From the IMG/VR virus record IMGVR_UViG_3300021255_001482, positions 10,382 through 74,381 of that record: a stretch of DNA of 64,000 nucleotides. The stretch is one strand, 5' to 3'. Of the stretch, positions 39,325 through 40,199 are shown in pieces. The position numbers and the translations under genes are program-made. The notes under the pieces are model-generated. The model saw only the letters and a program-made list of their open reading frames with translations. It had not been told where the DNA came from and ran no database searches. The DNA is from a virus (lineage: Duplodnaviria > Heunggongvirae > Uroviricota > Caudoviricetes). How positions within the stretch are numbered: the first letter of the stretch is position 1; each line of letters begins with the position of its first letter.

Positions 39325-40199
39325 ATCAGTCTTTTAAAGATTTTCCTGTAAAGAAAACTTAATCTTCCCCGAATGGAGGAGTTGCGTTCACAGTTCGCAT
39401 TATAACCTGTGACGGCACAATTTATGGAAAGCCTAATCCAAAGTAAGATAGGTATTGTGCTAAGTTATAAAGCGCAAAAGGAGAGCAAGCTGTTACTCCA
39501 AGTGGTCTTATCGGCGCCATATAAATAGGAAAAACCAATAAAATACAGCATAGAGCAAATATGACATCTAGACTTTCAACTAAGCTCTTCGCGGTTGCCC
39601 GCATAGTAGGTAGGCGTGCTATGGCAGCATTGTCAAAAAATGGGAAGGAAGTCATATCACCAGATGGGAAGGGAACCGAGTTATGCTCTTCCAGTGAGTA
39701 GGAGTCATGACCTACAATAGTCTGAACGCGGGATATTTCGTCGCCGCACTGGTGTTCAACCGGTTGATTTACGTAAATGAGTCGTTAGGAACGGCCCCAG
39801 AACTGAGGCCACGCGGGCACCTGGGTTATCAAAGCGCGTGGTGAATGGTACCTTATCCCGAGCGTCCACGTTCGCGGTGCTGGAAACTCGCCCCATTGGC
39901 TAAGGGTCGAGGCAAAGAGGGAACGTTGTTGGTGGTAACGGTGAAAATTCGCCCCGTCTTAGCCAAGGTTGTGACGGTTAAAGGGTATTCTAGATAAACC
40001 TACAACCTTTTTATTGATTCGGGAGGAAGTGTCCGTAGATGAACTTCTCGGAGTAATCGCCAAAATCGAATCGCTTCCGGGAGTGACGGGGTGTCGTAGA
40101 CGCAGAGTATCACTCACGTGTATTGTAAGAAACTTCTGTCATCCTTAGTTTCTTGTAGTTTCAAGGATGAGGGTCGCGGCCACCAGAGCGCCGCAACAT
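39325..40199 (+). ncRNA. Roughly 875-nt ORF-free, GC-enriched (about 48% vs about 33% background) region flanked by tRNAs. Candidate large ornate ncRNA (GOLLD/ROOL-like?).
   Basis: There is no + strand ORF of 60 aa or more. Only a 77-aa minus-strand ORF is present. The GC jump is strong. Phage-associated ~600-800-nt structured RNAs next to tRNA genes are known in low-GC bacteria. I cannot verify family motifs by eye. Confidence 0.35.

Follow-up and report, generated by a model that had tools for sequence, protein, structure and literature searches.

The large RNAs GOLLD and ROOL have been reported in the tRNA islands of phages (PMC5737381, PMC12286853). GOLLD has a variable 5' region, and one example, GOLLD env-38, is located downstream of a Met-tRNA (PMC12286853). 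Both belong to the few very large RNAs known from bacteria and phages and form RNA-only cages, and the position in tRNA islands is the sole clue to their role that recurs. On a smaller scale, the species 1 and 2 RNAs of phage T4 (rnaC/rnaD) are small stable RNAs which are co-transcribed with tRNAs and matured by the tRNA-processing machinery, and Seg-type GIY-YIG endonucleases occur in the T4 tRNA region. Here we describe a block of 875 nucleotides (nt), positions 39325-40199 on the + strand, in a stretch of 64,000 nt (the window) from a low-G+C uncultured phage (IMG/VR record IMGVR_UViG_3300021255_001482). The block lies in an island of 29 tRNA genes as called by ARAGORN (28 tRNA matches by Rfam), and its exact neighbours are tRNA-Met(CAT) at 39248-39324 and tRNA-Glu(TTC) at 40200-40274, located by both programs. 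An earlier note had delimited the block by the same two genes and had proposed it as a candidate large RNA whose size and setting fit GOLLD and ROOL. The observation holds, and the interpretation is supported in part: the block carries conserved, compensatory base pairing, has no Rfam entry and shows no recognisable relationship to a described family.

Conservation and base pairing of the block

Relatives of the phage were fetched via the DUF2828 protein encoded upstream of the block, and the most conserved string was then scanned in viral, metagenome and genome collections. The result was 29 distinct homologues. Their contigs, from IMG/VR or metagenomes, all belong to the same phage clade, which is probably of the rumen type to judge by the sample series. 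Each of the 20 complete copies is situated between tRNA-Met and tRNA-Glu; they measure 675-1595 nt with 41-50% G+C, and two 5'-truncated copies end at tRNA-Ala. For description the window copy was divided into modules m0-m12, and the counts below are given per 29 homologues or per 20 full-length copies. Covariance models were built for m9 (R1, 90.9 bits in the window) and m4 (R2, 109 bits in the window); neither of them detected a copy in 73 more remote loci having a DUF2828 gene (L008-L080) or an extra m9 or m4 paralogue in other spacers. Neither a second conserved-block pattern nor a pattern for m1 brought up further viral contigs. Two matches in 185,579 species genomes (bacterial metagenome-assembled genomes) and eight matches in non-rumen metagenomes were rejected as chance, all of them being inside long open reading frames (ORFs). 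In the same way locus L094, a possible divergent m9 (51 bits), was rejected as it lies within an open frame of 347 codons, and it was dropped from later analyses.

For four parts of the element a named structure was tested on a MAFFT alignment, using as controls 500 column shuffles and alignments in which the 3' partner was slid by 1-3 columns. Taken together, compensatory double changes are seen in 31 of the 91 pairs, and 96-100% of the cells remain paired, versus 30-60% in the slid controls. For m9, 97.2% of the cells are paired and six of 17 pairs are compensatory, including five of the seven pairs in hairpin P3; this test still included L094, the sole source of variation in helix 1. The four-helix junction m4 is paired in 96.3% of the cells with 10 of 22 pairs compensatory, whereas its slid controls reach 36-60%. 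The same 96.3% was obtained for m5-m7, modelled with an H-type pseudoknot (8/28 pairs compensatory), and all cells are paired in m1, modelled with two pseudoknotted helices (240 pair cells, 7/24 pairs compensatory). In none of the four parts did any of the 500 shuffles reach the covariation score of the real alignment. Related sequences can beat column shuffles without structure; the slid controls, the 31 double changes and the near-full retention of pairs are, however, hard to explain other than by structure. With compensatory pairs beyond the controls, the block is a structured non-coding RNA in the generic sense.

These helices contain 89 G-U cells versus 14 A-C cells, a bias that assigns the RNA to the + strand. 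Among the homologues, indels of 1, 2 and 4 nt occur within conserved domains, and these frame-breaking changes, together with an in-frame stop in the L005-type m9, exclude coding, small ORFs included. Likewise, m9 was rejected as a 20-codon small ORF following a Shine-Dalgarno-like GGAGG, given a 1-nt deletion and the in-frame stop in the L005 type and the wrong spacing. That the block could encode a protein, be it from the - strand or by a non-standard genetic code, is extremely unlikely. The - strand does hold the longest stop-free run on any strand, 120 codons, or 270 if TAA is read as sense, and suppressor tRNAs exist in some relatives (anticodon CTA in L003 and L050, TTA in L016). However, 120 codons is within the range of shuffles (median 84, 95th percentile 132), and the length, frame and strand of the run vary between homologues. 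Frame-breaking indels fall in the conserved parts, the small ORFs of the block have no Pfam or PHROG match, and the genes nearby use the standard code and lie on the + strand of a window that has no suppressor tRNA. The gene in an alternative code, which the earlier note had named as an observation that would tell against its proposal, was not found: when stop codons are reassigned, the stop-free runs do not agree from one homologue to the next.

The rise in G+C content, previously put at about 48% against about 33%, is real, with measured values of 47.0% (0.470) in the block and 36.1% (0.361) in the whole window. No + strand ORF of 60 amino acids or more is fully contained in 39325-40199, as had been stated before; the largest + strand ORFs entirely within it are 44-50 amino acids and those on the - strand at most 77 amino acids, and a GTG ORF of 62 amino acids (40118-40306) crosses from the block into tRNA-Glu. 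High G+C is also found in a protein gene at 36000-37000, and the absence of ORFs is not beyond chance at the G+C of the block, so that ORF absence and G+C alone are not decisive. We judge the block to be real because it is conserved with covariation, not because it is free of ORFs.

Relation to described RNA families

Rfam 15 (4227 families) was searched at the gathering threshold on the window and at E ≤ 10 on positions 35500-44200 (8.7 kb). The isolated 875-nt element was also searched at E ≤ 10 with relaxed filters, and seven relatives were searched at the gathering threshold. None of these searches gave a match to 39325-40199 or to the element in the relatives. This holds for GOLLD, ROOL, RNase P, group I and II introns and OLE, the comparison suggested in the earlier note, so membership of these families is not supported and only the tRNA-island setting agrees, while the non-coding and structured nature of the block stands. 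It had also named an empty Rfam search combined with a lack of conserved structure as evidence to the contrary; Rfam is indeed empty, but conserved structure is present. At the nucleotide level, blastn of the element and megablast of the surrounding 20 kb against 50,697 GenBank phage records revealed no relative.

GOLLD (RF01998) is among the closest described systems. Both RNAs are large (GOLLD ~800 nt), are found in phages (GOLLD also in prophages) and reside in tRNA islands, with one GOLLD example just after tRNA-Met, and both combine a conserved with a variable part and have self-complementary loops that covary yet stay palindromic (PMC12286853). In difference to GOLLD, the element has no covariance-model match, no long-range junctions or pseudoknots linking its domains were detected, and its variation extends along the whole length instead of the 5' half. 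The tRNA-adjacent phage context is shared with GOLLD but is not diagnostic. ROOL (RF03087) is encoded in the same genome: a full-length match at 43300-43893 (+; 324.2 bits versus a threshold of 99.1, E = 7.5e-74) is located 3.1 kb downstream of the block, just before tRNA-Asn in the same tRNA island, and ROOL is also present in L002, L003 and L007. Both are rumen-derived phage RNAs next to tRNA genes, but ROOL occupies a separate locus and is unrelated in sequence and structure, and the element gives no ROOL score. We regard it as very improbable that the element is a highly divergent GOLLD, ROOL or other large Rfam RNA missed by the covariance models. The size of 675-1595 nt, the phage origin and the site just after tRNA-Met fit the descriptions of GOLLD; against this, none of the 4227 families matches even at E ≤ 10, none matches in the seven relatives at gathering, and the same search finds ROOL 3 kb away at 324 bits, which indicates good sensitivity for this clade.

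The RNase-P-like string mentioned in the earlier note is present (GGAGGAAGTGTCCG at 40022-40035) but is not part of an RNase P RNA. No RNase P model matches at E ≤ 10, and the GGAGGAAGUGUCCG string belongs to m9, a simple three-helix stem-loop. Neither ARAGORN nor the Rfam tRNA model detects a tRNA or tRNA-like cloverleaf inside 39325-40199, and the four-helix junction m4 has no T-loop and D-loop signatures.

A self-splicing intron or another ribozyme tied to homing endonucleases could account for the endonuclease ORFs that are inserted into the structured RNA in two relatives (see below), resembling those in the loops of group I introns. Yet no group I, group II or small-ribozyme family matches at E ≤ 10, the element is flanked by complete, separate tRNA genes and hence has no exons to join, and most copies, including that of the window, carry no endonuclease ORF. 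This explanation can hardly be right.

With the T4 species 1 and 2 RNAs the element shares the nature of a non-tRNA structured RNA within a phage tRNA cluster, its own co-transcription being presumed. The T4 RNAs are, however, single units of ~120-140 nt, and the element has no DNA similarity to the GenBank phages searched.

Modules and their exchange among relatives

Pairwise comparison of the homologues shows a colinear mosaic, in which blocks of 85-100% identity have abrupt ends and are combined differently among relatives. A backbone in the order m2-m4-m5-m6-m7-m9-m12 is the same in all 20 full-length copies. Its members are nearly universal: m2 occurs in 17, the m4 type (including an alternative form) in at least 17, m5 in 19, m6 in 16, m7 in at least 17, m9 in 20 and m12 in at least 18 of the 20 copies. 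Modules m0, m1, m3, m8, m10 and m11 are optional or alternative, are scattered among the backbone and differ between closely related phages.

From the 5' end, all on the + strand, the window copy starts with m0 (39325-39383), an optional AU-rich segment present in nine of 29 homologues. It is followed by m1 (39384-39470), an optional double-pseudoknot module of five helices, which precedes m2 in the window but follows it in L001, L115 and L116. The backbone domain m2 (39471-39552) has a GCGC/GCGC closing stem, which covaries (AU/GC/UA; CG/UA), and then an invariant UAUAAAUAGGAAAAACCAA. The optional cassette m3 (39553-39657) is found in seven of the 29 homologues at 92-100% identity, with too few variants for a structure test. 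In m4 (39656-39756) the closing stem CACCAG/CUGGUG holds three hairpins; an unrelated alternative domain takes the place of this junction in L002, L005, L007 and L105. After two palindromes at 39756-39778, discussed below, m5 (39781-39795) forms the nearly invariant hairpin GUCGUU-AGG-AACGGC, which is 100% paired. The H-type pseudoknot of m6 (39797-39844) consists of CCCAG/CUGGG interleaved with GCCACGCG/CGCGUGGU and is accompanied by a conserved GUUAUCAAA; its two helices are 94% and 91% paired, and the changes are mostly wobble. Module m7 (39845-39884) is a stem-loop GGUACC...GGUGCU with an inner GCG/CGC stem, fully paired and with five of nine pairs compensatory.

In the 3' half, the variable domain m8 (39885-40006) is of the window type in five of 29 homologues and is swapped for a different domain of ~190 nt in most relatives, with only the AAAGAGGGAAC motif common to both versions. 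The most conserved module is m9 (40012-40076), which comprises the stem P1 (GAUUCG/CGAAUC), the invariant internal loops GGGAGGAAGUG and GUAAUCGCC flanked by variable stems, and the covarying hairpin P3. It is present in all homologues, for which it was the means of ascertainment, and also in all protein-ascertained loci L001-L007. Two optional 3' cassettes follow at 40075-40174, m10 with the hairpin GAGUGA/UCACUC and m11, the latter in 12 of 29 homologues. The interleaved 8-bp helices of m11 (40127-40134/40147-40154 and 40139-40146/40163-40170) may represent an H-type pseudoknot or alternative hairpins; the copies are 97-100% identical and too invariant for covariation. The element closes with m12 (40176-40194), a G+C-rich terminal hairpin GCGGC-N9-GCCGC ending 5 nt before tRNA-Glu, which occurs with two loop types and has a covarying stem (GCGGC/GCCGC, GCGGA/UCCGC).

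Exchange is not limited to the block. A module at 40330-40439, downstream of tRNA-Glu in the window, is found directly after tRNA-Met in L081, which shows that cassettes can move between tRNA spacers. In addition, endonuclease genes have entered the homologous RNA region in two relatives. L002 carries a gene for an HNH endonuclease with NUMOD4 inside it (14949-15434). In L003 a gene for a SegE-like GIY-YIG enzyme with NUMOD1 (14519-15199) is inserted in the P3 hairpin of m9 and splits the module between ...GUCCGUAGA and AUCGCC..., and a degenerate, AT-rich m9-like copy lies beside the endonuclease gene (14466-14529). The Seg enzymes of T4 are a precedent for free-standing homing endonucleases driving such mosaicism. 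In our analysis the mosaicism seems best explained by recombination together with gene conversion driven by homing endonucleases, for which free-standing enzymes are a plausible driver.

The same features could be taken to mean that the region is non-functional debris, made up of decayed tRNA genes, endonuclease landing pads and recombination scars and conserved merely by close kinship. Besides the mosaic structure and the endonuclease genes within the region in L002 and L003, the disruption of m9 in L003 and a tRNA T-arm-like remnant in the L005 version would fit. We nevertheless consider this improbable: neutral decay would break pairs, whereas 31 of 91 are compensatory and 96-100% of the cells are kept, the excess of G-U over A-C points to selection acting on the RNA of one strand, and the internal loops of m9 have stayed invariant between variable stems.

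One transcript or several in the tRNA island

The whole of 38940-40630 is non-coding and comprises, in this order, a leader, two tRNA-Met genes, the 875-nt block, tRNA-Glu, a spacer, a second tRNA-Glu and a further spacer, all on the + strand. Upstream of it lies a promoter-like TTGACT-17-TATAAT with a TG extension (38910-38938, 11/12 match), the likely start of the tRNA/ncRNA (non-coding RNA) unit. Within 39325-40199 no promoter-like or terminator-like sites are present on the + strand; the next strong promoter is at 40909. The leader cassette (38940-39170), 5' of both tRNA-Met genes, shows mosaic conservation: it is 96-99.6% identical in L001, L002, L006 and L104 and missing from other relatives. 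The two tRNA-Met(CAT) genes (39171-39246 and 39248-39324; together 39171-39324, ARAGORN and Rfam) have an encoded CCA, and the second forms the 5' boundary of the element as tRNA-Glu(TTC) forms the 3' boundary. The rest of the unit (40275-40630) consists of a spacer cassette (40275-40423), tRNA-Glu(CTC) (40424-40499) and a spacer (40500-40630). Like the leader, these two spacers are conserved mosaic cassettes, and 40500-40630 has weak paralogy to the m5/m6 core (AGUCGUUA...GUUAUCAAA).

We favour, at about an even chance, the interpretation that the block is a new multi-domain structured RNA which would be co-transcribed with the tRNAs, freed by tRNA processing and trans-acting like GOLLD and ROOL. 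Transcription would proceed from the sigma-70-like promoter at 38910-38938 together with the two tRNA-Met and two tRNA-Glu genes. Ordinary tRNA maturation would then release an RNA of ~875 nt, with 3' processing of tRNA-Met at 39324 giving the 5' end and RNase P cleavage at 40199/40200 giving the 3' end, on which the G+C-rich m12 hairpin would remain as a protective structure. In MALAT1/mascRNA, the 3' end of a long RNA is likewise made by RNase P at a downstream tRNA-like element and has a protective 3' structure. This is a mechanistic analogy: MALAT1 is eukaryotic and unrelated in sequence, and the downstream unit of the element is a real tRNA whose processing is presumed. Its most likely role would be that of a stable structural RNA which belongs to the phage tRNA island and acts in trans, with possible self-association via the palindromic loops; in function it would then be an analogue of GOLLD and ROOL without being their homologue. 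We infer the transcript ends, the stability and the oligomerisation from the sequence. The fixed order of a near-universal backbone, the single promoter without internal signals and the m12 hairpin abutting the tRNA 5' end argue for one unit.

The main alternative, less likely than one RNA but possible, is that small structured RNA cassettes of ~40-120 nt stand in tandem and are independent of each other, acting as extra 'genes' or as cis elements for processing or stability of the tRNA array; they would then be comparable to the T4 species 1 and 2 RNAs. It would explain that the supported helices are all local, each module having its own closing stem, and that the presence and absence of modules is combinatorial at 90-100% identity. 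It would also fit the swapped order of m1 and m2 in some relatives, the relocation of one spacer module, the same mosaic conservation in other tRNA spacers of the window and the position of m9 and m12, which always stand directly 5' of a tRNA (Glu or Ala). What such an array does not account for is the invariant backbone order in 20 of 20 full-length copies. Moreover, there are no internal promoters or terminators and no tRNA-like features to direct RNase P or RNase Z cuts between modules, and the m9 and m4 models find no further copies elsewhere.

Several observations weigh against a single functional RNA. The folding energy of the whole element on the + strand equals that of shuffles (z = 0.09); for the - strand z is -1.28, and neither value is informative. 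A naive all-against-all covariation scan was swamped by the noise of sparsely filled alignment columns; the masked scan revealed no inter-module helix and four antiparallel helices, all local, versus one helix in a parallel-strand control. Every covariation-supported helix is local, with a span of at most 100 nt. Since the divergence among the copies is low, this absence of long-range covariation is weak evidence. A pairing of the m12 loop with the m4 stem (CACCAG versus CUGGUG) was rejected, as the m12 loop does not covary with the m4 stem variants. The portability of the cassettes, seen in the varying m1/m2 order, the L081 relocation and the replacement of m4 and m8 by unrelated domains, argues in the same direction. 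The splitting of m9 by the GIY-YIG gene in L003 implies that an intact RNA is not indispensable, and the family is restricted to one narrow phage clade, the 73 distant DUF2828 loci being empty.

A hint of self-association comes from the two abutting perfect 12-nt palindromes UCAACCGGUUGA and AUUUACGUAAAU (39756-39778, +), where 0.21 would be expected (P ~0.02). In other phages they vary to UCAACGCGUUGA, UUAACUGGUUAA, UUUGCGCAAU and UUUAUGUAAU, which are self-complementary through the centre, with the central dinucleotides CG, GC and UG, and an optional cassette of relatives contains a GUGCAC hexaloop. Kretsch et al. 2025 (PMC12286853) took self-complementary loops that covary in this way as evidence that GOLLD and OLE form intermolecular kissing loops. 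Nucleotides next to each other in one chain are unable to pair, so palindromic loops point to intermolecular contact (PMC12286853). On the other side, the second palindrome becomes an ordinary extended hairpin in five relatives and is deleted in two, and the palindrome evidence rests on few independent changes. We take the loops as a lead and not as a result. A more far-reaching interpretation, which we regard as rather unlikely, would be that the element is a third, unrelated class of giant tRNA-island RNA, released from tRNA precursors by RNase P and 3' processing, assembled into a homo-oligomer by the palindromes (UCAACCGGUUGA, AUUUACGUAAAU and GUGCAC) and varied by endonuclease-driven conversion that swaps cassettes, possibly in an arms race with host RNA-targeting defences.

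The octamer RAGGGAAC occurs at 39669-39676, 39917-39924 and 40363-40370 (+), three times in 700 nt and once elsewhere in the 64 kb. Similar purine strings (GGGAAGGAAGU, GGGAGGAAGUG) head other modules, and as a post hoc reading the octamer and its kin may be a common motif for tertiary contacts or protein binding. In the window as a whole, the purine motif RRGGRAAS shows no enrichment (23 observed versus 23.2 expected).

Directly before the tRNA/ncRNA unit, the + strand encodes an RNA-repair-like set of four genes, a metallophosphatase (33866-34531), DUF2828/DUF7788 (35471-37006), cREC_REC with a cyclic-phosphate-processing receiver domain (37462-37818) and an RNA ligase (38049-38699). The DUF2828 gene has a G+C content of ~47%, which is unusual for this genome, and we take its DUF2828/DUF7788 product to be TROVE-like with a vWA domain. 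The DUF2828/DUF7788, cREC and RNA ligase genes, 0.6-3.9 kb upstream of the element, recall the rsr-Y RNA-rtcBA operons of the Y RNA/YrlA-Ro60 (TROVE) system. In difference to that system, no Y_RNA or YrlA match was found on 35500-44200 at E ≤ 10, no Ro-binding helix was identified in the element, and the RNA does not occur in the 73 distant DUF2828 loci.

The tRNA island contains further regions of this kind. Every other + strand kilobase had been described as densely coding, which does not hold for the ORF-poor spacers 30319-31414, 41733-42214, 42815-43299 and 47462-48010. They are 0.5-1.1 kb long, lie between tRNA genes and have 38-47% G+C, and the first three are patchily conserved in relatives. 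None of the four has an Rfam match at the gathering threshold, and they are candidates for further structured RNAs. A partial match to DUF3800-XI RNA was found at 41909-41938 (+; 33.8 bits versus a threshold of 37.8), and full DUF3800-XI RNA and drum RNAs are present in the tRNA islands of relatives (L002 1864-1911; L001 14860-14956, L002 18302-18398, L003 18840-18935, L004 7054-7150).

The Rfam tRNA model detects tRNA genes that contain insertions of ~45-75 nt at 42215-42345 (+) in the window, at 15865-15981 in L002 and at 8122-8272 and 19308-19438 in L003. The window example scores 42.8 bits, and ARAGORN calls neither it nor the one in L002. It can be read as a class II tRNA-Leu(UAA) whose anticodon loop contains an extra hairpin of ~46 nt (CGUGGG...CCCACG). 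At or near the matching position, the tRNA-Leu(UAA) genes of cyanobacteria and plastids carry a group I intron, but the insert is far too short for such an intron. A mini-intron, a pseudogene and a decoy are conceivable; the phage also has an RNA ligase gene close by. The suppressor-type tRNAs of the relatives (CTA, TTA; L003 8157-8233, L050 ~8200-8278, L016 ~1103) suggest stop-codon reassignment in parts of the phage group. Outside the island, a G+C-rich palindrome (C)TTGCGGCCGCAA(G) with a NotI site occurs at 5876-5889 and 13986-13997, 8 kb apart in an AT-rich genome.

The region appears well suited to define one or more new Rfam families. Its mosaic provides a natural series of deletions and swaps, with a fixed backbone, exchangeable domains and endonuclease insertions, which indicates the required parts. 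If the favoured interpretation of one multi-domain RNA is true, the phage would encode another, unrelated RNA of ~0.7-1.6 kb beside ROOL, and it would be a natural system for comparing two large RNAs within one phage. The tRNA islands would then be a general home for large structured RNAs.

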